Source: Deltaproteobacteria bacterium
GTDB taxonomy: Bacteria; Desulfobacterota; WTBG01
DNA length: 24,852 nt
Direction: 5' to 3'
Assembly (NCBI GenBank): GCA_013139225.1
Contig: WTBG01000232.1
Span: 1 to 24,852, forward strand
The notes below the pieces were generated by a model. It saw nothing but the letters and a program-made list of their open reading frames with translations, was not told where the DNA came from and ran no database searches. This document shows, piece after piece, positions 6,703 to 22,756 of this stretch (its first letter is position 1; each line of letters opens with the position of its first letter). The position numbers were made by a program, and so were the translations under genes.

Positions 6703-7167
6703 ATGTCAGAAAAAATGATTTGTCAAAACAAGAAGGCGCGGCATGATTTCCACATTATCAATACTTATGAAGCCGGCCTGGTTCTTAAGGGAAGTGAGGT
6801 AAAATCATGTCGATCAGGGAGGGCCAATCTTAAAGATGGTCACGCCCGGATTAAAGATGGAGAAATATATCTTGTCAATACCCATATCAGCCCTTATACC
6901 TATGCCCATCAGCTCAACCATGATCCTTTAAGAGAACGTAAGTTACTCTTTCACAAAAGTGAGATTAAAAAACTTTACGGCAAGATAAGGGAAAAGGGCT
7001 TTACGCTAATCCCTCTAAAAATGTACTTTAAAAATGGGAAGGTGAAGGTTGAGATGGCTGTAGCCAAGGGCAAAAAGACACATGATAAACGTGAGGATAT
7101 AAAGCGAAAAGATTTTGCCCGTGAGGAAGAAAAGGATTTCAAAGGAAAAAAGATAAAAGGAATATAA
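6703..7167 (+). CDS. smpB: SsrA-binding protein
   Basis: [42 protein letters not shown] motifs; adjacent to tmRNA. Confidence 0.98.
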
Positions 7168-7284: not shown

Positions 7285-7641
7285 GGGGGCGAAATGGTTT
7301 CGACGGGGATAAGTGAAGCTTAAGGGGCATGCCGAGGTCCTACTTGCTCGTTAAACAGGTGGGATTAAACATAATTGCAAACGATTATGATTACGCCCTT
7401 GCTGCCTAATCAGCAGTAAGCGTTCTTTTAGCTTTTGCCTGCGGGGCTAAAAAGGACGTCGACTCAGCGGGATAGTCTTCACCTCATGCTTATGGAGATG
7501 AAGATGAAACTAAATAAGCTAGCTCTTTAAGAATCCTGCCTGTGGGAGTTTCAAGGAGCGAAACTTAATATACAGGCTAATCATGTAGAACCTTAAGTGG
7601 AGTATTTCCGGACGCGGGTTCGACTCCCGCCGCCTCCACCA
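7285..7641 (+). ncRNA. ssrA: tmRNA (one-piece)
   Basis: 5' GGGGGCG pairs with 3' CGCCTCC-ACCA with a G3:U wobble; TTCGAC in both the 5' region and T-arm; internal tag ORF; follows smpB. Confidence 0.97.
7377..7409 (+). other. tmRNA tag reading frame (A)ANDYDYALAA*
   Basis: ATAATT-GCA resume context; GCA AAC GAT TAT GAT TAC GCC CTT GCT GCC TAA. Confidence 0.92.
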
Positions 7642-7714
7642 TCTTTTTAGCATATTTAGTATAAATTAGAGTATATTTAAGTTTATTTGATTACCAATAG
7701 TTTTGGAGGAACGA

Positions 7715-8608
7715 ATGAAAAAAGCATTCAAAATCATAGGAGTAGTACTACTTATCATTATAGTAGCAGTCTCAATCTTTATATTTACATATCAGCCTAA
7801 AAAGTATTCCGATTTCGGTGTTTTTACAAGTCTTCGTAATCAAGTTCTTATATTACTAAAAGAATACGGAGCAAAAGAAAGATCCATTACTCAAGATTTC
7901 AACGAATTTACCTTAAATTTATCTTTTCCGTATAACAAGGTATTTGGCAGTAATGTCATTGCTGTACCCCTAAAATCCTTCCACAATGATAAAATAGCCG
8001 CTGCAACCATTACCCATTTTGAGATTCCCTCCAACTCTTCTTACTCTCGAGATTTTACCTTAAACATTAGACCCCGGTATGGATTAAGAGCTCCTGTTTT
8101 CCACGTCGATTTTATGAAGCCTGCATTAGGAACACCCGGGCTTTGCATCGTCGATTTCTTCAATGTCGATAAAGACAACATTTCTTTGGAATCGTTCTTT
8201 GGTGATGAACGTACAACCATTGAAAAAGCCTTGTCAATTGTCGAGAAATACCAGCGAAGCATAGAAGAAGGAAGAGGGAAAATCAGCCGATATCTCGATC
8301 CATATAAAAGCACGTATCGATTCGAGCTCAAGGAACCAGAAACAGACGATGAGACCATACGAAAGGCGTATTATCAATCGGTTGAAGAAGCTTTACAATT
8401 AATTTTCCCTTCCTACTTCAAAAGCATGAATGAAATTCAGCTTGATACCAACTTTGTAAAACGACATGAAGAGAAAACGAAAGAGCTGGTTCAATTAATG
8501 TACAAGAATGATTTTGCTATTGACATGGGAAGGAGAATTTTCAAAGAGCATTTTGAAAAATACTGGCTGGATGGCTTTTGGAATGTACAGGTAGACTTAA
8601 AGGATTAA
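7715..8608 (+). CDS. N-terminally anchored protein with ferredoxin-dependent bilin reductase / RCCR-like fold motifs
   Basis: ATG 7715 with GGAGG RBS; hydrophobic N-terminal helix; P-x6-P-x-F-x2-D (RPRYGLRAPVFHVD), then a hydrophobic strand plus Asp (LCIVDF), and C-terminal ND-x7-IF-x4-EKY. Confidence 0.6.
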   Translation: MKKAFKIIGVVLLIIIVAVSIFIFTYQPKKYSDFGVFTSLRNQVLILLKEYGAKERSITQDFNEFTLNLSFPYNKVFGSNVIAVPLKSFHNDKIAAATITHFEIPSNSSYSRDFTLNIRPRYGLRAPVFHVDFMKPALGTPGLCIVDFFNVDKDNISLESFFGDERTTIEKALSIVEKYQRSIEEGRGKISRYLDPYKSTYRFELKEPETDDETIRKAYYQSVEEALQLIFPSYFKSMNEIQLDTNFVKRHEEKTKELVQLMYKNDFAIDMGRRIFKEHFEKYWLDGFWNVQVDLKD

Positions 8609-8656
8609 TACTCAAAGAAGGGTGCATTTTCAAATAATGCTTCTGTATTAATGCTT

Positions 8657-8671
8657 CCCGATCAGAGTCGA
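8657..8671. repeat. REP-like module fragment CCCGATCAGAGTCGA
   Basis: Identical 15-mer at 17876-17890; lies between convergent genes. Confidence 0.5.
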
Positions 8672-8785
8672 GGGTAGGTTTTTCCTGAATGATTGAATTG
8701 GGAATTTCCCTTCCTTCGGTGGAATGGATTAGGGGAATGGGGGAAGTAAGCTCCTTTACTTCTTACCAGATCGTCATACCTGTTT

Positions 8786-10150
8786 TTAATTCCCCTTAAG
8801 GATCTGGACAACAGTTTCTATCACTTCAGATGCCTCAGGGCTTTTAATCACTACTGCATCCGCCCCGGCATTGAGTGCACTCTTTCTGGTTTCAGGTTGT
8901 TTGTCGGCTGTAAACAGGATCAATTTTATTCCCTGGCAGTCTTCATTTTTGCGCACACCCTGGCATATCTCAATCCCTGACATAACAGGAAGCATAAAAT
9001 CAATAACCGCTGCTACAGGTTTCTCTCGAATTATGAGATCCAACCCTTCACGTCCATCAGCCGCAGTCATGGGATGAAAACCCGCTTTTTGAAAAAGACG
9101 GGTATAAAGTCTCAGGATAACAGGGTTATCATCAATGATGACTAATTTTTGAGGTTTCAGTTGATGATTTTCCAATTGGTTCTTTTCATCCTGTCGCTCA
9201 TCAATTACTAAAAGCATATCCGTGCTTTCAAGCTTTGTCTCTAGGTCTGGGAAGATGAAGTCACGTCCGTTCCTGCGAAGACCAACAACCTCTCTCCCCA
9301 TTTTCCCCGATACTTCGCTTATTGTCTCACCCAACACACTCAATTTATCCTGGACCTTGATCCACTGGGGAGCAGCGTTGGTTCCAATAGATGATTTAGA
9401 CAACTCTGTCTGCTTTCCCGTGGCTGCAAGTATATCATCTGCAATCTGTTTTCCTGCTGTGGCAAAAGGTGAAATAACACTGTCCGCTCCTGCTTGTAAA
9501 ATCTTTTTCTCCGAAGAAGCCTCTTCAGCTCTTGCAATAATGTGGAGAGTGGGGTTTAGCTCTCGAGTAGTAAGAACTATGAACAGATTATCTGGATCAG
9601 AATTGAGAAGAGCTAGCAGACCTCTGGCCGACTTTACACCTGCTTCCAGCAGTACATTTTCATGTGTTGCATCTCCTTCAACATAACAATAGCCCTTTCC
9701 CCGAACTTCCTGTAACTGTGTGGGATTAGTCTCAATGATGACAAAATCAGAACCCGCCGTTTTAAGATGCTCCGTCGCGGCCGCACCTACTCTTCCAAAC
9801 CCGCAGATAATGTAGTGAGATTTTAAAAGTGATATATGTTTTTTCATTTTTTTTATCTCCGATCTACCTTCCTGAACCCTTTCAAGGAGTGATTCTACTA
9901 AGGCATGCCCTGCAAATGCAAGGCTTCCAAAACCTATTAAGATAAGAAATATTGTAAACCCACGCCCCACCCCCGACAATGGCTTCACTTCTCCGAAACC
10001 CACTGTTGTGATGGTAATAATTGACATGTAGAGCCCCTCAAACAAGGTATACCCTTCTATCAGCATATATCCTGAGGTGCCGATCGCAATAATAGCCAGG
10101 CATAATATTAGAGCGATCACAATCCTATTATTATAAAACATATTTAACAC
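8786..10150 (-). CDS. 2TM potassium channel with RCK (TrkA-N/TrkA-C) domain and C-terminal receiver domain
   Basis: TTVGFG selectivity filter (9992-10006) between two TM helices; ICGFGRVG Rossmann motif; REC with IIDD, IDFMLP, LFTA and VIKS. Confidence 0.9.
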   Translation of the reverse strand: MLNMFYNNRIVIALILCLAIIAIGTSGYMLIEGYTLFEGLYMSIITITTVGFGEVKPLSGVGRGFTIFLILIGFGSLAFAGHALVESLLERVQEGRSEIKKMKKHISLLKSHYIICGFGRVGAAATEHLKTAGSDFVIIETNPTQLQEVRGKGYCYVEGDATHENVLLEAGVKSARGLLALLNSDPDNLFIVLTTRELNPTLHIIARAEEASSEKKILQAGADSVISPFATAGKQIADDILAATGKQTELSKSSIGTNAAPQWIKVQDKLSVLGETISEVSGKMGREVVGLRRNGRDFIFPDLETKLESTDMLLVIDERQDEKNQLENHQLKPQKLVIIDDNPVILRLYTRLFQKAGFHPMTAADGREGLDLIIREKPVAAVIDFMLPVMSGIEICQGVRKNEDCQGIKLILFTADKQPETRKSALNAGADAVVIKSPEASEVIETVVQILKGN

Positions 10151-10171
10151 TCGCCAAAACGTCTTTCATTT

Positions 10172-11149
10172 TTATTTATTGACGTACATAGTCTTCTTAT
10201 TTATTAAACTTGTTTCGTTCATCCCTTCACCAGCAATCCTGTTCCTACCTGCTTCCTTCGCTTCATAGAGACATTTGTCTGCCTTCTCTATTAGCAACTT
10301 GGCTAAAACTTCTTCCCCATCAATGCCATGCCCAAAACCGCTTATGCCAAAGCTGGCAGTAATCTTTATCTCTTCTCCTTCCAGCGGAATCACCATCTCA
10401 GATATAAGACAACGAATCCTTTCCACCACCTTCCATGCTTTATCTAAATCTGTTTCCGGCAGGACAAGGATAAACTCATCACCACCATACCTGGCCAGCC
10501 AGTCAACGCCTTCACGAATAGTACTCATGATGCACCTTACATATTCCTGCAAAACCAGGTCACCTGCTTGATGGCCGTATGTATCGTTGATTTTTTTGAA
10601 ATGATCGACATCGATCATCACAATGTGTAGGGAGTGTTTGTAACGTTTACTTCTCTTGATCTCCTTGGATAGATGTTCCATCAAGTAGCCGCGATTGTAG
10701 CACTTGGTGAGTGGGTCAGTTATAGAAAACTTCTTTATTTCATCGCAGGCATTGGACAAAGATCTTTCTAAATTCAAAAAGCGTTCCCCGGCTTTCATAC
10801 GTGCCACAAGTTCAGCCTGGTTAAACGGTTTGGTAAGATAATCATCAGCCCCGGCATCCAATCCAGCAATAATATCACATTTTTCAGCTCTGGCGGTAAG
10901 CAGCACAACAAAGACATAACCTGGGAATTTCTGTTTCCGTATAGCTCGACATAATTCAAGGCCATCCATCACGGGCATCATCCAATCCGTTATGACTATG
11001 GGATAATAATTCTTTGTTAAGCTCTCCAGTGCCTCTCGACCATTGCTGGTAGATACAACCTTTCTTCCAGCTTTCACCAGGTTCTTTTCCAGCATTCTCC
11101 TGCTAACAGGGTCATCTTCAGCTATTAATATAGGGAATGAATTATCCAT
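10172..11149 (-). CDS. Response regulator diguanylate cyclase (REC-GGDEF)
   Basis: REC: AEDD, TDWMMP, LTA, KP. GGDEF domain: TDPLT, DVDHFKKIND, RYGGDEF, TASFG. Confidence 0.95.
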   Translation of the reverse strand: MDNSFPILIAEDDPVSRRMLEKNLVKAGRKVVSTSNGREALESLTKNYYPIVITDWMMPVMDGLELCRAIRKQKFPGYVFVVLLTARAEKCDIIAGLDAGADDYLTKPFNQAELVARMKAGERFLNLERSLSNACDEIKKFSITDPLTKCYNRGYLMEHLSKEIKRSKRYKHSLHIVMIDVDHFKKINDTYGHQAGDLVLQEYVRCIMSTIREGVDWLARYGGDEFILVLPETDLDKAWKVVERIRCLISEMVIPLEGEEIKITASFGISGFGHGIDGEEVLAKLLIEKADKCLYEAKEAGRNRIAGEGMNETSLINKKTMYVNK

Positions 11150-11469
11150 TAAATTACCCTTATCTCTCCTGCTATTTGGTCACATTGCTCTTTAATGAAT
11201 TCAGCCGCTTTGGCAGCCCCTTCCAATCCATTCTGCCGGGCTTTTTCTTCAACCCCTTTCGCTATCTCAAATATTTTCTCCAATCCAAGATTCGCGGAAG
11301 ATCCCTTTATGGAATGTGATGATGCAACTACTTCTTGGGTATCGCCCGTGTCAATTCCTGTCCTCAGTTTGTCAAGATTCGACTCCGTCGTTTCTAAAAA
11401 GAGCTCAAGCAACTCAAGGTATTCATCCTCTTCCAAACCTAAATTTTCTGCTAATCCTTTAACATCCAT
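11149..11469 (-). CDS. Stand-alone Hpt phosphotransfer protein
   Basis: SHSIKGSSANLG motif; stop overlaps the DGC start (TAATG), suggesting translational coupling. Confidence 0.93.
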   Translation of the reverse strand: MDVKGLAENLGLEEDEYLELLELFLETTESNLDKLRTGIDTGDTQEVVASSHSIKGSSANLGLEKIFEIAKGVEEKARQNGLEGAAKAAEFIKEQCDQIAGEIRVI

Positions 11470-11497
11470 GGCCCTCTCCTTTTTTAGATTTCTAAAT

Positions 11498-13828
11498 TCA
11501 ACTCTTCACCCATTTCTCCACCATATCAAATACGACTTCTCTCTTAATCGGTTTGGGGATATAATCATCCATTCCTGCCTCAAGGCATTTCTCCCTGTCA
11601 CCTTCCATGGTGTTGGCAGTCATAGCGATGATAGGAATCCTAATGATTTCGGATTTCGGATTTCGGATTTCGGATTGTTCTGCATTCGGATCATTCCATA
11701 ATCCGCATTCCAAATTCCGAATTAGTTTTGTAGCCTCCAGCCCATCCATCACCGGCATCTGCATATCCATAAAAACAAAACTGTATCTTCCTGTTTCACT
11801 TTTTCCCATCCCTTCTTTCCTTACTTCTTTCCCCTCGCATCCATTCACAGACTTTTTATACATTTCCACTGCTTCCTGACCATTGTTTGCTATCTCCACC
11901 TGGTAACCAGCCTTAGTCAGCATTTTTGAGGCAAGCTTCTGGTTGACTGGATTGTCCTCAACCAGCAAAATCCGCACCGATTGCTTAATCCCTTCGTTCA
12001 ATGTAAGCTGAGTGGATATCTCCTGTTTCCCCCCTTCTGCTAAACCATGAGTGGTCTTACCGATCTTAATACTACTTCCTCCTACCTTCTTACCCAACAA
12101 CCGTTCCATCATATCAAGGAGTTTTTCTCGGCGAATAGGTTTGAGCAAAAACCCGTCAAATCCTGCTTCCCTGCTCTTTTTAGTACCATCAATTGTAGAA
12201 GAGGAGAAAGCCAACAACGGGAGATCTCTTAGCTTTTCATTCTGACGAAATCTTCTGGCAACCTCATATCCACTCATCACTGGCATTTGTATATCTAGAA
12301 CACCTAAGTCAAAGGAATCTCCCTTGCTCAAAGCAGAAAGTGCAGCATCTTCCACCTTCTCTGCCTCAGATACCAGCTCCACCCGTGCTCCTGCAGAATC
12401 TAACAGGTGACCTAAAATAAACAGGTTGGTCTGATTATCATCTGCAACAAGCACCTTCTTCCCCTCAAGGGAAGCACGACAATCCTTTACGGAAGGTTTC
12501 TTGTCAGATTTTTTCAGCCAGGTGGTGAAATGAAAAATACTGCCAGGACCACCGATTTTGGATTTTGGATTTTGTATTGCGGATAGTGGACTTTGGATTT
12601 TAGATTTGCCATTTTCTACTCCGCAATCTGCTTCCCGCATTCCCCAATCAGCCGGGCTTTCTGCCCATACATCTCCACCCATAGCATTGGATATTCGTTT
12701 GCAGATGGCGAGACCAAGACCTGTACCCCCATACTCACGGGTAGTAGAACCATCGGCCTGTTTAAACATTTCAAAAACACCTTCCAACTTGTCTTTGGGA
12801 ATACCAATGCCGGTATCTCTCACCCTTGCGTGTAACTTGATCCTATCCTCATCTTCTTCTTCAATTTTAAGGGAAAGCTCAATCTCTCCTTGACTTGTAA
12901 ATTTAGTGGCATTGCCTATCAGGTTAACAAGCACCTGGCGGAACTTTGCGGGATCTCCCTCTACATACGAAGGGATATCGTCATCTATGTGGCACAAGAG
13001 CTCTACTGGTTTCCCTTCCACCTTGGATCTGATTAAATCACACACATCGTAGGCCAGAAGTTCAGGATCAAAGTCAATCTCCTCAAGAGTCATCTTTCCA
13101 GCTTCAATCTTGGAAATGTCAAGTATGTCATTGATCAGATAGACAAGTGCCTCTCCACTTCTCTTTACAGTCTGAACGTAATCTATCTGCTCATCATCAA
13201 GCTCGGTTTCTAAAAGCATATCGGTAAAACCGATTACTGCATTCATGGGGGTGCGGATCTCATGGCTCATGTTCGCCAGAAACTCACTCTTGGAACGGGT
13301 GGCATCTTCCGCTTTTTTCTTCGCCTTTTTCAATGCCTCAAACATTTTTTTTCGTTCAGTGATATCCCAACCTACACTTACCATTCCATTTTTATTCTCA
13401 TATTTATCATAAACCATGGCTGTGCTCATCTCCATAGGTACGAGCTTCCCACACTTCTGAAGAAGATAGGTTTCATACTGGCTTCGCTCTCCTTGAGATA
13501 TTCTTGTTTGTATTTCTTCATAATCTGCTAAAAACTCGTCATCTATTACCACCGTCTCTCCCGTAGTGGAGATATAATCTCCGGGTGTCACCTGGGTAAT
13601 ATCGGCTAATCTTTTACCTAATAGCTCTTCGATGGAATATCCCAAAATATCCACTAAGGCAGCGTTCATGCGTATAATGTTACCGTCAATATTTGTTACT
13701 ATTACGCATTCTCTGGATGTCTGCATGATGTTTTCAAGATAATTTTCTATCTCTTCCAATCTTCTTTCCAGTTGAGTGATTTCCCACTCTGCTCTCTCCA
13801 TTGAATGTTCTTCTTTTTCTAACATCAC
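11498..13828 (-). CDS. Cytoplasmic hybrid histidine kinase PAS-HisKA-HATPase-REC-REC with repeat-derived loop inserts
   Basis: H-box [10 protein letters not shown]-box [22 protein letters not shown]; two complete REC domains; no TM segment. Confidence 0.95.
11645..11723. repeat. In-frame 7-nt-periodic inverted-repeat element (insert A)
   Basis: (GATTTCG)x4 at 11645-11672 and opposite-sense heptamers TTCCATA-ATCCGCA-TTCCAAA-TTCCGAA at 11694-11721; encodes ...[11 protein letters not shown]. Confidence 0.85.
11789..11862. repeat. In-frame purine-rich (minus strand) low-complexity insert C in the distal REC domain
   Basis: CTTCTTTCC at 11812 and 11824; encodes [21 protein letters not shown] where REC domains normally have a short loop. 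Boundaries approximate. Confidence 0.5.
12554..12651. repeat. In-frame 7-nt-periodic inverted-repeat element (insert B)
   Basis: 14 consecutive heptamers in one register: GATTTTGx3, TATTGCG, GATAGTG, GACTTTG, GATTTTA, GATTTGC, then opposite-sense units (CAATCTG, CATTCCC, CAATCAG). Confidence 0.85.
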
Positions 13829-13881
13829 TTTATTCCTCTTATTTTTTAAAACTTATACAGTAGAATAAACAATTCACATGT

Positions 13882-14742
13882 TTATTTATTTTTATTAATC
13901 CCGAAGAACTCTTTTGCTTCATCTACTTCAGATCGCAAGTTTCCTATCACCTTTTCCCTGGCCTCATCAGTTAATCCAATTTCTTTACAGACATCTTCTG
14001 TTTTTTCATGGTTTCTATTCCCATCAGACCATCCTATCCCCTCTACTCTACACAATTGATCTGCAACATAGATCGTTTTCACGGCTTTGACGGATTCACC
14101 TAAACTCTGGTTTGAAGGTGCATGATGATTTTTAACACAAGCTCTCAAAACGGGGGGGAACCTGTTTTCTCTGGCAAACCACTCACCTACCTCAGCATGG
14201 GAAGTACCAAATACCTTATTCTCAGATTGATAAATCTCCTCTACACCTCCTTCTACCTCCTCTAAAACCTTCCTATATTCTTCAGGAAAGCTATCAGATA
14301 GGATTATTTTCCCAATATCATGCAATAGACCAGCAGCCAGTAATTCCTCTGGACAAGGATATTCAATCTCCTTCCCAATAGATCTGGCTCCTACACCAAC
14401 CCCCAGAGAGTGCTCCCAAAACTTTTCCATATCCAAAACAGAAACCGTCCCATTTCTTGACATTTTTGCAATAGAAAAACCCATTGCGAGATTTTTTACA
14501 GCATTGAAACCCATAATAACCACGGCATGTTTTAAGCTGGAAATACGCCCGGAAAACCCATAAAAAGGAGAATTTACTTGTTTCAAAATCTGGCTGGCTA
14601 ATGATTGATCACCTTCTATAATTTTACCCACATCTTTTGCTTGCGATTTCGAATCATCAAATACCTCCAGCAATTTTGTGGTGATCTGCGGAAGAGCAGG
14701 TAGATTCTTCGCCTTTTTAACAATCACTTCAAGGTCTGCCAT
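13882..14742 (-). CDS. HDOD domain protein
   Basis: LPALPQI, DQSLASQILKQVNSPFYG, AVVIMG, FWEHS, AGLLHDIGK, HAEVG, HH motifs. Confidence 0.93.
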   Translation of the reverse strand: MADLEVIVKKAKNLPALPQITTKLLEVFDDSKSQAKDVGKIIEGDQSLASQILKQVNSPFYGFSGRISSLKHAVVIMGFNAVKNLAMGFSIAKMSRNGTVSVLDMEKFWEHSLGVGVGARSIGKEIEYPCPEELLAAGLLHDIGKIILSDSFPEEYRKVLEEVEGGVEEIYQSENKVFGTSHAEVGEWFARENRFPPVLRACVKNHHAPSNQSLGESVKAVKTIYVADQLCRVEGIGWSDGNRNHEKTEDVCKEIGLTDEAREKVIGNLRSEVDEAKEFFGINKNK

Positions 14743-14825
14743 CGTTCCCCCCTTTTCTTCTCATGCCAATTACAGTTCTTTGAAAAAAATATCAAAAAAT
14801 ATTTAACCATAATCTTTAGCTTCGC

Positions 14826-17525
14826 TTAAGCAATTGGAGCACCGTCCTCCATCATCTCTTTAACTGACCCTAATATTTGATTCATTTGAAAAGGTTTGTT
14901 AATCACTAAATCTACTCCGCACTTTTTCAACTCGTTATTGTTCAGATCCACTTCCCATCCGGTAACCAAGGCCACTTTTGTCTTTCCATTCATCTTTTTT
15001 ATTTCCTCTGCTACCTGCCAGCCAGACATTCCAGGCATTCCCAGATCGGTAAAAACCAGGTTAAACTTCTTTTCCTGAAAGAGCTTTATGCCTTTTTTAC
15101 CATTTGGCGCCACCTCAACCTTATAACCACCATCCTCTAAAATATCCTTAAGGATGGTTCGTACACCTTCCTCATCCTCAACAACTAAAATGCTGGTTCC
15201 ATTTTGTTCGTTTGCAATCGGTTTCTTTTTTTCTTTAATAACCTTTTCAGGTCTAGGAAATTTGATGGAAAAGGTGGTCCCCTGACCTTCAACACTATCT
15301 ACCGTGATTGTCCCCCGATGACGATTGATGATCCCATAGGAGGCACTCATACCCAACCCTGTTGACTGCACACCTTTGGTGGTAAAAAAAGGATCAAATA
15401 TTTTATCTTTTATATCTTTGGGAATACCGATACCGCTGTCCTTAACCAAAACCACCACATGGCTATTCTCCACGAAGGTCTTTATGGAAATCTGCCCCCC
15501 TTTAGGCATGGCATCAAGGGCATTATTCATAATGTTGATAAACACTTCCCTGAGTTCAGAACCGCTTCCTTCAATGGGAAAAATGAGAGAAAGTTCTTTT
15601 TGGATATTTATTTTTATTCCCTTCGCCCCGGCTTCATCTTTCCATCTCACTTTAGTAAATTCCAAGGTGTGTTCAATAACCTCATTCAGGTCAACACCGG
15701 TAAAGTTTTTATCATCACCCCTTTTTCGGGAGAATTCCTGAATCCTGCGCACAGTATCAACTCCATCGAAGGCAGCCTTTTCGATGATTGCCAAACTTTT
15801 TTTCAGATCATCTATCGATTTTCTTCGTTCCTGCTTCCCTATCAATGTCTCAAAACTCCTTCCTAAAAGCTGTGTCCTGCCAAGGATAACAGCTAATGTA
15901 TTATTAAAATTATGAGCCACTCCTCCTGCCAACTCTCCCAGTGACCTCAATTTTTCAGATTGTAGGAGTTTATCTTCCATCTCCTTCCTGGAGGTGATAT
16001 CACGTACGAAAGAAGTAAAAACATGTTCCCCATTTATTTCTAAACCAAAGACGGAAGTTTCTACAGGGAATTCTCTTCCGTCTTTTCTAAATCCTTTCGT
16101 CTCCACGGTCCTTCCTATTACCTTTGATGCTTTGACTTCTTTAAATTTTTCCATTGCCTCTTTCTGTTTTTCCCTATACTGTGGGGGTACTAACAAAAGT
16201 ACAGATTTCCCCAATATTTCCTCACGATCATAACCATACATTTCTTCGGCTTTCTTATTAAACGTCACTATCACCCCTTCTTCATTCACAGAAATAATCG
16301 CATCAATAGCATTCTCTATTAAACTGTGATATCTCTCTTCTGAATCCTTTATCTCTTCACCTGCTCTCTTTCTATCAGTTATATCTCTGATACTCGCCAT
16401 TGCTCCTGTAGTATTGCCTTCTGCATCCTTTAATATTGAAAGGTTCAATTCGACATGAAATAAATTCCCATCTTTTCTCTTCCACACCTGTTCTACACCT
16501 GTCATTCTCTCCTTTATCTTCAGTTTCTTTATTATTCTAACTGCTTTTTCATGGTCTTTATCATCTAGCGGCATCAATTCCCATATGTTTTTCCCCACTA
16601 TTTCGTCTTTGCTGTATTCAAGCATCTTCTCTACGGCACTGTTAATCTGAACGATGCAGCCAGAAGTGTCAGTTATCACAATTCCATCTACCGAAGTCTC
16701 AAGGATGCGCCGCAATTCCAGTGTGCGATCTTCTAGAAGCTTCTCCACTCTTAAAAGTGACCATTCCCTTCTAATCTTTTCACAAAGATCAATAAGATAT
16801 CCTATTTTAAAAGGCTTACGTACAAACGCATCAGCCCCCATTTTGGTAACCTTCATAGCTAACTCTGGGTTTGCATCACCCGTTGTAACTAAGACTGCCG
16901 CCTGGCTCTGTGGTAATTTAAACGCAGTAAGAAGTTCAGCCCCATCATGTTCGGGTAGATGATAGTCAAGAATGACGACTTCGGGATTAACTTCCTCGAA
17001 CAGGCTATAAGCCTGATTTCCATTGGAAGCCTCGAAAACCGAATAGCCATACTCTCTCAACCCTTCGCAGATTGTTCCCCTCAAACTTTCACTATCTTCC
17101 ACAACCAGTACTCTTAACTCTCTCTGCTCGACCTTTCCCAACAATATATTCTCTATGGTAGACCTCAAAATCTCGGGGTTGTAAGGAACTGAAATAAAAC
17201 CATTAGCACCCAGTTCCCGTGTAATCTCTTCGGCATCGCTCCCGCTGAAAGTAGCTGACATAACCAAAATGGGTATCTTGTTAAAGTCAGAGAATTCTAT
17301 AGATCGTAGCAACCTGCATAATTTCCAGCCATCTATTCCAGGCATGTAGAGATCAGTGATAATCATGTCAACTGATTCTATCTCTCTTAGTTTCCTTAGA
17401 GCCTCCTCCCCTTCCGCACAAGTAATAGCTTCTTTACCACTCTTCTCAAGATGCTTTGCTAAAATCCGAAGCTGCACTGGATCATCGTTGACTATAAGAA
17501 TCCTATTTTTAAGTATCTTTTTCAT
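14826..17525 (-). CDS. Cytoplasmic hybrid histidine kinase REC-REC-PAS-PAS-HisKA-HATPase-REC (atypical H-box)
   Basis: AHNFNN H-box, NIMNNALDAM, DSGIG, FDPFFTTK, GLGMS; two PAS domains ending RDIT; three REC domains. Confidence 0.94.
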   Translation of the reverse strand: MKKILKNRILIVNDDPVQLRILAKHLEKSGKEAITCAEGEEALRKLREIESVDMIITDLYMPGIDGWKLCRLLRSIEFSDFNKIPILVMSATFSGSDAEEITRELGANGFISVPYNPEILRSTIENILLGKVEQRELRVLVVEDSESLRGTICEGLREYGYSVFEASNGNQAYSLFEEVNPEVVILDYHLPEHDGAELLTAFKLPQSQAAVLVTTGDANPELAMKVTKMGADAFVRKPFKIGYLIDLCEKIRREWSLLRVEKLLEDRTLELRRILETSVDGIVITDTSGCIVQINSAVEKMLEYSKDEIVGKNIWELMPLDDKDHEKAVRIIKKLKIKERMTGVEQVWKRKDGNLFHVELNLSILKDAEGNTTGAMASIRDITDRKRAGEEIKDSEERYHSLIENAIDAIISVNEEGVIVTFNKKAEEMYGYDREEILGKSVLLLVPPQYREKQKEAMEKFKEVKASKVIGRTVETKGFRKDGREFPVETSVFGLEINGEHVFTSFVRDITSRKEMEDKLLQSEKLRSLGELAGGVAHNFNNTLAVILGRTQLLGRSFETLIGKQERRKSIDDLKKSLAIIEKAAFDGVDTVRRIQEFSRKRGDDKNFTGVDLNEVIEHTLEFTKVRWKDEAGAKGIKINIQKELSLIFPIEGSGSELREVFINIMNNALDAMPKGGQISIKTFVENSHVVVLVKDSGIGIPKDIKDKIFDPFFTTKGVQSTGLGMSASYGIINRHRGTITVDSVEGQGTTFSIKFPRPEKVIKEKKKPIANEQNGTSILVVEDEEGVRTILKDILEDGGYKVEVAPNGKKGIKLFQEKKFNLVFTDLGMPGMSGWQVAEEIKKMNGKTKVALVTGWEVDLNNNELKKCGVDLVINKPFQMNQILGSVKEMMEDGAPIA

Positions 17526-17669
17526 AAAAACCCTTCAATCTAAGTATTGTTTAAATAAAATGGTATATTCAAACTTAACCCAATTAACTTCTATACAAAT
17601 TCTTCCCCATATCGAGAATTTATTTATATACAATCCTTCTTAATTCTTTATATTCTACTACTTCAAAGA

Positions 17670-17696
17670 ATATCGGAATATATTAATAAGACTTTA
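17670..17696 (-). promoter_or_regulatory. Putative sigma28 (FliA)-type promoter of the signalling cluster
   Basis: Minus strand TAAAGTCT...TCCGATAT with TAAA-N15 spacing, versus consensus TAAAGTTT-N11-GCCGATAA. Confidence 0.5.
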
Positions 17697-17861
17697 TAAA
17701 AATGTATAAATATTAGGGGGATTCTATATGCAAAACAAAAGGGGTGGGGTCAGGCTTAAACCTCTCGGAAAGGTAAGCACACAAAAGTAAACTAAGATCA
17801 TTTCCTTGGGAAGTAATTATTTATTCTGCTTATCTACAATACTCAAGTTGTCTATTAGTCC

Positions 17862-17992
17862 CTGGATCCCTGCTCCCCGATCAGAGTCGAAGACAAGTTT
17901 TGCAGGGATGACAAGCAAGGATGGAACCGATTGAACAAACGTGTCATTCTCGCCCCGTATCAAGTACGGGATAAACTCCAGCGGGAATCCAG
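17862..17992. repeat. Inverted pair of REP/RPE-like palindromes (GTCATTCCCGC...GCGGGAATCCAG type) with nested inserts
   Basis: CTGGATCCCTGC...TGCAGGGATGAC (17862-17912) and GTCATTCTCGC...GCGGGAATCCAG (17943-17992). Confidence 0.75.
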
Positions 17993-18053
17993 TATTGTTA
18001 ATAAGGGTATTCAACTGGAGATTTCAGGATAACCAGATTATTTATTTATAACC

Positions 18054-19244
18054 TCATTTTTTACCTGTTTCCCTTAAGGGAACAGCAAATCCTGCTGCCA
18101 TAATAAGAGCCACAGCCATGAAAATGAATCCTGCCCAGTGAGAGTTAGCCAAATCCATCAGTTTACCGGACAAAATCGGGCCAAAAGCACCCCCAGTATT
18201 TCCTACCATAAAGATAAGCCCAAAAGCGGTTGCTGATAATCCAGGACCTATCTCTTCAAGTTCTACCGGGATGGTCATTAAGATTGGGGCAATAGTCCCT
18301 AGCGCCGCTCCGGTAATCACTAGCGCAATAACGAGAGGAATTCCCTTAAGAGTAGCTAAAGTAAGGATACCAAGTCCAAAAATAACAGAGCTTATTATGA
18401 GGAAGGGCTTTCTCTTACCAAGTTTATCCGAAAGTATTCCACCCAGAACATTAAATATCACGGTGGTTCCCAACATAATGGCAACAAGTTCTCCCGCCTG
18501 CTCTACCCCTCTTTCCTCCAAGCTCACAGGAAGAAAGGTTATAAGCGCCATCATACCAACCATATTGAGCCCATAGAAACCAGAAAGCAACCAGAGGTCT
18601 TTTACCTTAAGAACTTTTTTGAAATTATCCTTCATATTCTGCTTTTTCACCTCAGCTGCCCCTTCTTTCTCTCGATCCCTATATATGAACACCCAGAGTA
18701 TCCCCATGCCAAGAACAGCAATTCCAATTACAAGCAAAGTATTTCTCCAGCCACCGAAAGCAGGTGACATAAAGCTGGTTGCAGTCGCCATGGCAACAGC
18801 TCCCCCAATCCCCATGCCAGAGATGCACAATCCATTGGCTAAAGCGAGCTCCTTCCGGGGAAACCACATACCCAGTGCCTTTGGCATATTGGGGCCTATA
18901 ACGGCCATTCCAGCACCAATGAAAAACATGCATACAATAAGACCATTGGCACTTTCCACATAAGCACGAAGTGCCCCCGCAACTGCTATAATCAGCACAG
19001 ACGCTCCCAGTGCCCACCTGGAACCGATTTTATCACTGACCGCTCCACCAATAGGGGCAAAGAAGAGGGATGCGAAGGTAAGTACACCCATAACTGTTCC
19101 CATCTGTACCTTGGTCAAGGGTATCTGCTCTACAATCTCCGTAAACAGTGCCGGGATACACTGCATACACAAGACAGCAAAAAAGATGTTGAGAAAGAGT
19201 AGAACGAGAACCAGCCAACGAAAAGTAGATTTTTGTTCTTCCAT
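18054..19244 (-). CDS. Major facilitator superfamily transporter (12 TM)
   Basis: GAVSDKIGSR and GILSDKLGKRK motif A in both halves; ATG at 19244 preferred over 19286 because of the AGGAG RBS. Confidence 0.92.
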   Translation of the reverse strand: MEEQKSTFRWLVLVLLFLNIFFAVLCMQCIPALFTEIVEQIPLTKVQMGTVMGVLTFASLFFAPIGGAVSDKIGSRWALGASVLIIAVAGALRAYVESANGLIVCMFFIGAGMAVIGPNMPKALGMWFPRKELALANGLCISGMGIGGAVAMATATSFMSPAFGGWRNTLLVIGIAVLGMGILWVFIYRDREKEGAAEVKKQNMKDNFKKVLKVKDLWLLSGFYGLNMVGMMALITFLPVSLEERGVEQAGELVAIMLGTTVIFNVLGGILSDKLGKRKPFLIISSVIFGLGILTLATLKGIPLVIALVITGAALGTIAPILMTIPVELEEIGPGLSATAFGLIFMVGNTGGAFGPILSGKLMDLANSHWAGFIFMAVALIMAAGFAVPLRETGKK

Positions 19245-21137: not shown

Positions 21138-21205
21138 TATCAATCCTTTTATTTCGTAATTAGATAAGCATCACAAAGCAAAACATCTTGCAGGAGACGC
21201 ATTTT

Positions 21206-22756
21206 ATGAGTCAAGATAAACACGGCACTATTAAGCAGGCACTGGCAGATCTTTTAGGGACAGAAAATGTTTCTGATGATAAAGCTGTCCTTGAAGCCTA
21301 TACCAGAGATTGGCTTCCACCTGGAGTTCTAGAACACTTCCCTCCTGAATTCGTAGCTCTGCCAGGAAACACCCGGGAAATTCAGTCAATCTATAAATTA
21401 GCCAATCGATATAAATTCCATTGTATTCCAGTGGGCTCAAACCTCTGGTCAGTTGCCACTAAAGCAACGCGTCCTTATACAGTTCTTCTGGACCCAAAGC
21501 GACTGAACCACATCGTCAAAATAGATGAAAAGAATATGTATGCTATTATCGAACCTTATGTATCCAATGCTCAGGTATCTGCCGAAGCCATGAAACGAGG
21601 TTTAGTATGCGGATGTCCTGAGGCAGGAGGCCAGGCCTCCCAACTGGCAGGTCATACCTTTCAGGGATTCTGGGGGATTGGATACCGGATCGGTATGGGA
21701 TATCGAAATATCCTGGGTTTTGAATGGGTTCTCCCCAATGGAGAATTGTTGAAAATTGGTTCTTTAAGTCAGCCCAATGCTGGCCCGTCATGTGGCGAAG
21801 GTCCTGGCCCTGATCTCCGCGGGATGCTGAGAGGGTACCTGGGAGCTATGGGAGGGCTTGGAACAGTTACCCGAATGGCCATTAAGCTCCATCCCTGGCC
21901 AGGTCCTAAAACTTTTCCCTGTGAAGGAATGGTTCCCAATCAGAAATCGGTATTGCCCCTTAAGAAATTTGAATGGGTTCTGTTTAAATACCCCACCTTG
22001 AAGGATTGCGTAAAAGTTATGTATGAGATCGGGAAGAGTGAAATCGGAGGCAACCTGGAAAAGTGGCCTACTTCTTATCTCTGCTGGTGGTGGGCAAAGT
22101 CGTGCGAAGAGTACTGGGAAACCTGGAAATCAGGCTATTTCCAGAAAAATATGAAAAACATGGTATCGATTTGCCTCTGGGGTTTCACCTCAGAAAAACA
22201 GCTTCAATATGAAAAAAGAGTTCTTGAAGATATAATTTAGGAATCTGGTGGAAAACTCATCCCCCGGGAATATTACGATAAGTGGGTTCCCTATGCTGCC
22301 AACAACTGGATTCGTGATACCAGCGGTCCCCGGATGATGCTTCCATCAGGAGGGTTTGGACTTTTTTCAGTAGGACCGGATACCCTGAAATTTGCCATGG
22401 AATCGGTTAAACGAGGCCATGTCTTTATGAAAAAATACAGCCCACCAGTGTTGGATTGCGACTACTCTGACTGGATTGCATCCCATGAATTTTCTCGTTT
22501 TGGTATTGGAGAAACTGATTTTCCTTTTGAAAAATCCGTTGAGCAATCTCAGGGTCTGATGCAGGCTATGCTGGCTTTTGTAAAGTGGGGTATAGAAAAT
22601 AAAACTGATGATGGTACAGGGCCTGCCCTGGGAGGTCCTTATCACGCTATGGCTGGACCAACATATTACAACTATGATAAAATTTTGGTTGAAATCAAAA
22701 AGACCCTTGATCCCAATAACGTTGCCAATCCACCTCATATAATTCCAACAGAATAA
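21206..22756 (+). pseudogene. VAO/PCMH-family FAD-binding oxidoreductase interrupted by one in-frame TAG (22238-22240)
   Basis: ATG 21206 with CAGGAG RBS; FAD-binding PCMH N-domain (PEFVALP, IDEKNMYAIIEP, EWVLPNGE, GAMGGLGTVT); the frame continues after TAG to [13 protein letters not shown]; 516 codons in total. Readthrough is not excluded. Confidence 0.8.

Follow-up and report, generated by a model that had tools for sequence, protein, structure and literature searches.

Two-component systems are best known for regulating transcription, enzymes or motors. Some of them form branched relays in which several kinases share a single histidine phosphotransfer (Hpt) protein, as in the LuxN/LuxQ/CqsS–LuxU–LuxO system of Vibrio, the HptB network of Pseudomonas aeruginosa, and the CckA–ChpT–CtrA/CpdR and ShkA–ShpA–TacA systems of Caulobacter, where the first receiver (REC) domain of ShkA is a pseudo-receiver. 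K+ transport is under two-component transcriptional control in the KdpD/KdpE system, and the TrkA/RCK-gated K+ channel YugO functions in biofilm signaling in Bacillus subtilis. Among RCK channels, MthK is gated by Ca2+ and has an internal Met start that gives rise to a soluble RCK, and GsuK carries a pair of RCK domains in each subunit and is activated by ADP and NAD+. Here we describe a cluster of six co-directional genes at positions 8786–17525 (minus strand) of a 24,852-nucleotide stretch of Deltaproteobacteria DNA (contig WTBG01000232.1, hereafter the window), in which a putative branched relay of this kind is encoded together with a predicted K+ channel that carries its own receiver. The source assembly (GCA_013139225.1) is a metagenome-assembled genome (MAG) of 2.02 Mb that is 74% complete.

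The open reading frame (ORF) listing and Pfam assignments confirm a preliminary description of the locus, which had recognized six co-directional genes separated by gaps of −1 to 83 nt:

14826–17525, minus strand: HK1, a soluble hybrid kinase of 899 residues, REC-REC-PAS-PAS-HisKA-HATPase-REC by Pfam.
13882–14742, minus strand: HDOD protein of 286 residues (Pfam HDOD, 2e-56; HD, 3e-12) with the HD dyad H141-D142.
11498–13828, minus strand: HK2, a soluble hybrid kinase of 776 residues, PAS-HisKA-HATPase-REC-REC by Pfam.
11149–11469, minus strand: single-domain Hpt of 106 residues (PF01627, 1e-15) with the phospho-His H52 in HSIKGSS.
10172–11149, minus strand: REC-GGDEF cyclase of 325 residues (Pfam GGDEF, 1.2e-44).
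8786–10150, minus strand: channel of 454 residues, Ion_trans_2-TrkA_N-TrkA_C-REC by Pfam.

From HK1 to the channel the spacers are 83, 53, 28, −1 and 21 nt, the negative value reflecting a 1-nt overlap of the Hpt stop with the cyclase start. By Pfam the cluster contains three PAS domains and seven RECs, three of them in HK1, two in HK2 and one each in the cyclase and the channel, and DNA-binding domains are absent from all six proteins. Hydropathy analysis places transmembrane (TM) helices, two in number, only in the channel; no 19-residue window reaches 1.6 on the Kyte–Doolittle scale in the other five proteins. The preliminary description's inventory of two hybrid kinases without TM segments, three PAS domains, an HDOD protein, an Hpt, a REC-GGDEF protein and a channel-REC, with seven RECs and no DNA-binding domain, is therefore correct. 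Catalytic residues are intact throughout, including the kinase His, the acceptor Asp in all seven RECs, HxxKG in Hpt, GGDEF in the cyclase and TVGFG in the channel. The seven RECs are 18–37% identical to one another, which is too low to indicate partner pairs. As judged from sequence, the balance tips slightly toward these six genes forming an operon-like module for a multistep His-Asp phosphorelay with a cyclase and a K+ channel as outputs.

In the mechanism that we propose, where the phosphotransfer steps, the direction of flow, the gating effect and co-transcription are all what we infer, HK1 and HK2 are soluble, PAS-bearing kinases that would autophosphorylate and load their own C-terminal receivers. 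The phosphoryl group would then move to the single-domain Hpt, which would exchange phosphate with two effector receivers, those of the cyclase and the channel. Phosphorylation of the cyclase would promote dimerization and synthesis of cyclic di-GMP (c-di-GMP), as in WspR and PleD, and the phosphorylated channel REC, tethered under the gating ring, would bias the pore toward opening or closing. The N-terminal receivers of HK1 are likely to be further Hpt clients, in a kinase cascade or as feedback, because Hpt adjoins HK1 in three related genera (g2, g3 and g6, below) and because an HK1-like gene of Desulfonatronum directly follows an Hpt-fused kinase. The HDOD protein would be an accessory that, in these genomes, accompanies relays built on hybrid kinases, and Hpt probably also serves three other hybrid kinases. 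More tentatively, and at somewhat less than an even chance, we suggest that the channel represents a widespread class of K+ channels whose gating is under the direct control of Hpt-type phosphorelays through aspartyl phosphorylation, and that in this lineage one relay sets, in parallel, c-di-GMP synthesis and a K+ conductance that would act on membrane potential or turgor.

The assignment of the channel REC to such relays draws on the homologs of the channel. The clusters returned by a word-indexed search number at least 120 at the 90% identity level, and each has pore, RCK and REC; where they are named at all, the names are 'NAD-binding protein', 'voltage-gated potassium channel' or 'response regulator'. 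An exhaustive search of 50%-identity representatives gave ∼31 full-length channel-REC clusters that are 32–61% identical to the query. Channel-REC proteins occur in Thermodesulfobacteriota/Desulfobacterota, Calditrichota, Planctomycetota and Verrucomicrobiota. An Hpt domain is fused to the channel in 13 of the ∼31 clusters, at the C-terminus in 12 and at the N-terminus in one, and the HxxKG phospho-His motif is kept in all four of the C-terminal fusions that were aligned.

We also surveyed the neighborhoods of 80 genome and 80 metagenome loci, annotated with purpose-built profiles and collapsed at 85% identity, using loci of REC-less RCK channels as a control. Counting features that are fused to the channel or lie within 5 kb, channel-REC loci (n = 32) compare with REC-less loci (n = 41) as follows, where the p-values are optimistic because the loci are mutually related:

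Hpt: 8 of 32 versus 0 of 41 (p = 8e-4).
Hybrid kinase: 7 of 32 versus 1 of 41 (p = 0.018).
Any relay part: 12 of 32 versus 1 of 41 (p = 1e-4).
REC-GGDEF: 6 of 32 versus 1 of 41 (p = 0.04).
Plain non-hybrid kinase: 0 of 32 versus 4 of 41 (p = 0.13).

The result changes little when the window's own lineage is left out. The arrangements themselves are varied. In L114 (73% identity), the channel lies between a REC-Hpt gene and two REC-HD-GYP genes, and in L124 an Hpt gene is found 62 nt downstream of the channel. L113 has a hybrid kinase, Hpt and HDOD 2.7–3.9 kb upstream, and L084 has REC-PAS-HK-REC, REC and HDOD genes that are convergent with the channel. In L133/L136 (63%), the channel is accompanied by orthologs of HK2 (47%) and of the cyclase (58–62%) and by another hybrid kinase, and in L006 and L147 the channel and a cyclase ortholog (52–53%) are separated by two unrelated genes on the opposite strand. 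Three independent lines, the fusions, the controlled neighborhoods and the variety of arrangements, all point to a channel REC that belongs to Hpt-type relays.

The start of the channel gene is probably the ATG at 10141, giving the 451 residues found in the database copy P0007. Pfam identifies Ion_trans_2 (1.3e-14), TrkA_N (2.2e-35) and TrkA_C (2.1e-5, below the Pfam cut-off), and this is the only Ion_trans_2 gene detected in the genome. TM segments at residues 1–33 and 60–86 flank the filter TVGFG at 49–53 (TTVGFGE, 48–54), a sequence that predicts K+-selective conduction. A single nucleotide-type RCK domain follows (G117xG119xxG122 ... E140), and then, after a flexible linker of ∼13 residues, a C-terminal REC with DD340/341, D384, T414 and K436. 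In an alignment of 88 sequences, D340, K436, G117, G119 and G122 are invariant, and D341, D384, T414 and E140 are conserved in at least 90%. The best solved relative, by both sequence and fold, is MthK (E = 1e-34), followed by GsuK. The channel aligns to MthK residues 23–332, but the Ca2+ triad of MthK, D184/E210/E212, corresponds to L181/R207/E209, indicating an MthK-like architecture rather than a Ca2+-gated MthK ortholog. The GxGxxG...E motif matches the nucleotide site of RCK2 in GsuK, which is gated by ADP/NAD (PMC3510474), and GxGxxG probably also allows the RCK of the window channel to sense adenine nucleotides or NAD. Just before the RCK, M102 (window 9845–9847) is invariant in a 20-sequence alignment and conserved in at least 90% of the 88 sequences, with a GGAG 9 nt upstream; by analogy with MthK, it may be an internal start that yields a soluble RCK-REC. 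The AlphaFold2 (AF2) monomer has a pLDDT of 82.8 and is confident for each domain, with values below 50 in the linker (319–331), and Foldseek aligns ∼500 columns of the model to GsuK.

Conservation of the cluster was examined in 40 relatives. A full-length channel-REC is present in only two of them, G001 (same genus, 94% identity) and G002 (another genus of the family, 76%); other members of the family have a REC-less RCK channel that is 33–37% identical, or partial RCK/REC matches only. Across four genera, the gene orders (DGC, the REC-GGDEF cyclase) are:

Genus g1 (window and G001): HK1-HDOD-HK2-Hpt-DGC-channel, channel present; the 3.8-kb contig of G001 contains Hpt-DGC-channel only.
Genus g2 (G002): HK2′-HK1-Hpt-DGC-channel, channel present.
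Genus g3 (G003): Hpt-HK1-HDOD-HK2, channel absent.
Genus g6 (G006), and likewise L110, a 192-kb metagenome contig without genus assignment: Hpt-HK1-HDOD-HK2-REC-GGDEF, in the same chromosomal neighborhood, channel absent.

The window order is repeated exactly in L117, an independent assembly at 92% identity. As read from these sequences, the kinase pair and Hpt are the stable core in all four genera, HDOD and the cyclase are frequent companions (the cyclase accompanies the core in three of the four), and the channel is a movable add-on in two of the four. HK1 orthologs in the three other genera are 63–84% identical, and the kinase core of HK2′ in g2 is 74% identical to that of HK2. The HK2 orthologs keep this core and swap the sensor, which is PAS in g3 and g6, a periplasmic phosphonate-binding domain with GAF in g2, and a membrane N-terminus in L133. 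Cyclase orthologs (52–68% identity) are found next to or near a channel-REC or the relay in g6, L133/L136, L006 and L147, and in no fewer than five lineages they are close to the channel; where cyclase and channel adjoin, the spacer is 21–30 nt. An addition of the channel confined to g1 and g2 was considered and rejected, since L133/L136, L006 and L147 have cyclase orthologs (L133/L136 also HK2) near channels that are 53–63% identical. Loss of the channel in g3 and g6 and transfer of a cassette are equally possible.

Both kinases have HisKA and HATPase_c domains with recognizable DSGIG/DTGIG, FDPFF/FEMF and GTGLG motifs. HK1 has a CckA-like H-box (GGVAH538NFNN), and its receivers have acceptor Asp residues at D58, D187 and D827; REC1 has V113 in place of the conserved Lys, and REC3 contains a VTGW motif that resembles the FATGUY motif. 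The HK2 start is likely the ATG one codon past a GTG. Its H-box is SH189EIRTP and its receiver Asp residues are D512 and D688, which, like D827 of HK1, are each accompanied by an acidic pair, a Ser/Thr and a Lys. HK2 also contains repeat-derived inserts in the ATPase lid and in REC2, and an apparent third Pfam REC stretch is a single REC2 split by these inserts. The inserts consist of heptamer repeats, at 11645–11677 (within REC2) and 12554–12652, and are in frame. Assembled word depth over the 11645–11677 block exceeds 1000 in one sediment run and is 23–570 in the other three, with many different flanks, so the heptamer unit is common far beyond the HK2 gene.

The HDOD protein covers positions 1–196 of the 196 in the PF08668 profile, and its orthologs sit between the two kinases in g3 and g6. 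The function of the HDOD family is unknown (PMC6543031, PMC4114195). The genome encodes seven or eight HDOD paralogs. Seven of these, in a genome of ∼2 Mb, are full-length Pfam matches of ∼290 residues (C195, C350, C84, C245, C161, C185 and C76), and five of the seven adjoin kinase/REC, GGDEF, HD-GYP or PilZ genes, for example as HK-REC-HDOD on C84 and HDOD-REC-GGDEF on C185. Hybrid-kinase relays are a reproducible genomic partner for this poorly understood domain.

The cyclase has RYGGDEF at 220–226 (GGDEF at 222–226) and a REC with D55, a Tyr at the aromatic switch and the canonical T/Y/K switch residues. At the position of the RxxD inhibitory site, five residues ahead of GGDEF, the in-register tetrad is E213-G-V-D, with an Arg one position earlier; the RxxD site is optional for the REC-GGDEF family. 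Three REC-GGDEF, three HD-GYP and about 15 PilZ proteins are encoded in the source genome, and no EAL protein was found in this 74%-complete assembly.

A PF01627 search of the assembly returned a single Hpt, that of the cluster, and one match each was likewise obtained in G001, G002, G003 and G006. No CheA-type Hpt is present in G000, G001, G002, G003, G006 or G008, with at most one Hpt match per genome, and genus g4, including G008 at 98% completeness, has no Hpt at all. Besides HK1 and HK2, the source genome encodes three hybrid kinases with a C-terminal REC (C276, C319 and C82), four REC-kinase proteins and twelve plain kinases.

Evidence bearing on co-transcription comes from scans of the cluster and from RNA libraries of seep sediment. 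By a simple scan, no minus-strand terminator-like hairpin is found in any spacer of the cluster; terminator and promoter scans gave matches no commoner than in shuffled sequence, and folding of the 3′ spacer gave no significant structure (z = −0.9). The best promoter-like match (10157–10130) overlaps the channel start codon and was set aside as probably due to chance. RNA-library contigs touch all six genes, one (11008–11203) spanning the Hpt/DGC junction and another (14744–14921) covering the 3′ end of HK1 and the whole 83-nt spacer, and the flanks at 8000–8700 and 18179–18500 have no matches.

Several of these results weigh against the cluster being one relay with a cyclase and a channel as outputs. 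The RNA pattern is compatible with co-transcription but speaks for it weakly, as the contigs are sparse, short and unstranded, and DNA carry-over is possible. The preliminary description had called the system self-contained, which is not borne out: with a single Hpt detected in the genome and three further hybrid kinases ending in REC, Hpt is more likely a shared hub than a private carrier, allowing for the missing 26% of the genome. The branched relay with c-di-GMP and K+ outputs that it had proposed nevertheless gains comparative support from the co-conserved parts, the Hpt fusions and the controlled survey. Co-conservation of the Hpt-DGC-channel trio holds only in part, because the trio is present only in two genera, in one of these, g2, an in-frame stop in the cyclase (L109:2926–3921, minus strand) takes the place of Tyr151, within TKCYNRGYL, where the GGDEF domain starts, and two genera, g3 and g6, have the relay without the channel. 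The g2 split is called in three assemblies, where the adjacent Hpt and channel are intact, and the g2 cluster also has no HDOD gene. Within the survey, whose loci are related as noted above, 13 of the 32 channel-REC loci have no signaling gene within 5 kb; the channel is therefore independent of an adjacent relay and is often an orphan response regulator. The channel REC has a Val at the aromatic switch position family-wide, and the AF2 monomer has no confident REC–RCK interface from which a gating geometry could be read.

The chief rival reading makes the channel REC an intermediate receiver or a sink, which takes phosphate from a kinase or from Hpt and either passes it along or drains it, thereby tuning flux to the cyclase, with K+ conduction set by the nucleotide-binding RCK alone. 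We regard this as unlikely and give the three further readings considered below lower weight. The REC-Hpt order of 12 of the 13 fused clusters, which is that of the C-terminal half of unorthodox kinases, fits it, as do the Val at the aromatic switch, where variability has been described for intermediate receivers (PMC9981736), and the retention of GxGxxG...E in the RCK, as in ADP/NAD-gated GsuK (PMC3510474). However, the REC is permanently fused to the channel in ∼31 clusters, ∼18 of which have no Hpt, and this is hard to explain without an effect on the channel. The REC also has no FATGUY-type motif, its best PDB matches include the terminal regulators RpaA, PhoP and CheY besides the intermediate Spo0F, and one fusion carries its Hpt at the N-terminus. 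It is likewise improbable that the channel is only a neighbor, inserted recently after the cyclase and served by another donor without any coupling. Many homologs do stand alone among housekeeping genes, only 2 of the 40 relatives have the channel, and the relay of g3 and g6 has none. Against this, a single Hpt was found in the genome, the Hpt fusions of the family and the lack of adjoining plain kinases point to Hpt-type donors, cyclase or HK2 orthologs recur near the channel in the lineages with 53–63%-identical channels, and the cyclase–channel spacer is short, at 21–30 nt.

Two separate pathways lying side by side, HK1 with HDOD and HK2-Hpt-DGC-channel, with no cross-talk between them, would account for the different H-box types of the kinases, for the position of the largest spacers (83 and 53 nt) on either side of HDOD and for L133, where HK2-type, DGC and channel genes occur together without an HK1 ortholog. 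We nonetheless consider this quite unlikely, given that HK1 and HK2 occur together in all four genera, that Hpt adjoins HK1 rather than HK2 in g2, g3 and g6, and that the Desulfonatronum HK1-like gene directly follows an Hpt-fused kinase. The REC could also be a pseudo-receiver that is never phosphorylated and substitutes structurally for a second RCK-like lobe: it occupies the sequence position of GsuK RCK2, the Foldseek alignment to GsuK extends over ∼500 columns, and AF2 predicts no confident docking. This is very improbable, because conservation of DD, D384, T414 and K436 across the 88 sequences is complete or at least 90%, and because the Hpt fusions would then be senseless.

The remaining features of the window lie outside the cluster:

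17526–18053, minus strand: upstream spacer of 528 nt, AT-rich, 5′ of HK1, with one copy of a dispersed repeat at about 17840–17930.
7285–7641, plus strand: tmRNA (Rfam RF00023, 240 bits), directly after smpB (6703–7167).
1–72: tRNA (Rfam).

The upstream spacer probably contains the promoter region of the cluster. Beyond it are a co-directional MFS transporter gene and then a divergent ECF sigma/anti-sigma pair. Downstream, and convergent with the channel, are an unassigned ORF (7703–8608), the tmRNA, smpB and an H+-pyrophosphatase gene. An Rfam search found no RNA family inside the cluster, and only the tmRNA and tRNA elsewhere in the window. The channel gene does not look foreign in GC or GC3. 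The window sequence is near-identical in cold-seep and marine-sediment metagenomes, and its nearest named homologs are from Thermodesulfobacteriota MAGs.

The dispersed intergenic repeat has the core TCGACTCTGATCGGGGAGCAGGGATCC within a hairpin-forming unit of ∼90 nt and occurs in at least 14 genomic places. In addition to the full copy at ∼17840–17930 upstream of HK1, a degenerate copy lies at ∼8640–8690 downstream of the channel; both have the same orientation, so the cluster is bracketed by the repeat. Adjoining the upstream copy, the block 17943–17993 is matched by RNA-library contigs that continue into unrelated sequence on both sides. A FAD_binding_4 flavoprotein is split in the window (21188–22240 and 22334–22756, plus strand), and the same flavoprotein is encoded by one unbroken gene of 516 residues in the same neighborhood of L110 (L110:91–1641). 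In g6-type relatives, the MFS gene is separated from the relay by a gene for a Pfam ferredoxin-dependent bilin reductase (L110:5358–6056, minus strand). The window ORF at 7703–8608 (plus strand) has marginal similarity to this reductase (pairwise E = 0.005), and the PAS/GAF kinases could conceivably receive an input related to bilins.

If the proposed mechanism is correct, ion flux would become something that His-Asp signaling controls directly, phospho-Asp would be a new gating input to RCK channels, and two-component signaling would gain an electrical output that is fast, coupled to a second-messenger output that is slow. That the channel pairs repeatedly with c-di-GMP enzymes suggests that, in uncultured bacteria of seeps and sediments, lifestyle switching is tied to K+ homeostasis or membrane potential; there is no evidence here for community-level electrical signaling. 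The model lends itself to standard phosphotransfer and liposome-flux assays, since the proteins of all five upstream genes are soluble and the channel is similar to the repeatedly reconstituted MthK.

With the LuxU, HptB and CckA–ChpT relays, the cluster shares several hybrid kinases, one small phosphotransfer protein and at least two REC clients. The HNFNN H-box of HK1 is CckA-like and its C-terminal REC is FATGUY-like, and HK2 has the kinase-REC-REC order of ShkA (details of the CckA and ShkA relays are given in PMC9981736). Unlike those relays, the cluster has no transcription factor or protease adaptor among its visible clients, the outputs being an enzyme and an ion channel, and an HDOD gene is embedded in it. 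Both HK2 RECs keep the acceptor Asp, unlike in ShkA with its pseudo-receiver REC1. In its layout, an intact GGDEF joined by a linker helix to a REC that carries D, T, Y and K, the cyclase resembles WspR, PleD, Rrp1 and Desulfovibrio vulgaris DVU2067/DVU0636 (PMC4114195). It differs from WspR/PleD-type regulators in its EGVD at the I-site and in a gene that overlaps that of Hpt and precedes that of the channel.

The channel has in common with MthK two TM helices, the TVGFG filter, a single RCK in each subunit and a conserved Met immediately ahead of it, but the Ca2+ triad is not kept and a full receiver follows the RCK. No receiver domain is present on the solved K+ channel chains that were matched in our sequence and fold searches, and we did not find a receiver-fused K+ channel described in the open-access literature searched or in the surveys and reviews consulted. 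As in KdpD/KdpE and YugO, His-Asp signaling or biofilm state would be linked to K+ movement; unlike in those systems, the receiver is within the channel polypeptide, so that control would be post-translational and fast. What appears new here is the receiver-bearing channel as a putative relay client, repeatedly fused to Hpt, whereas the relay logic and the other parts are already known.

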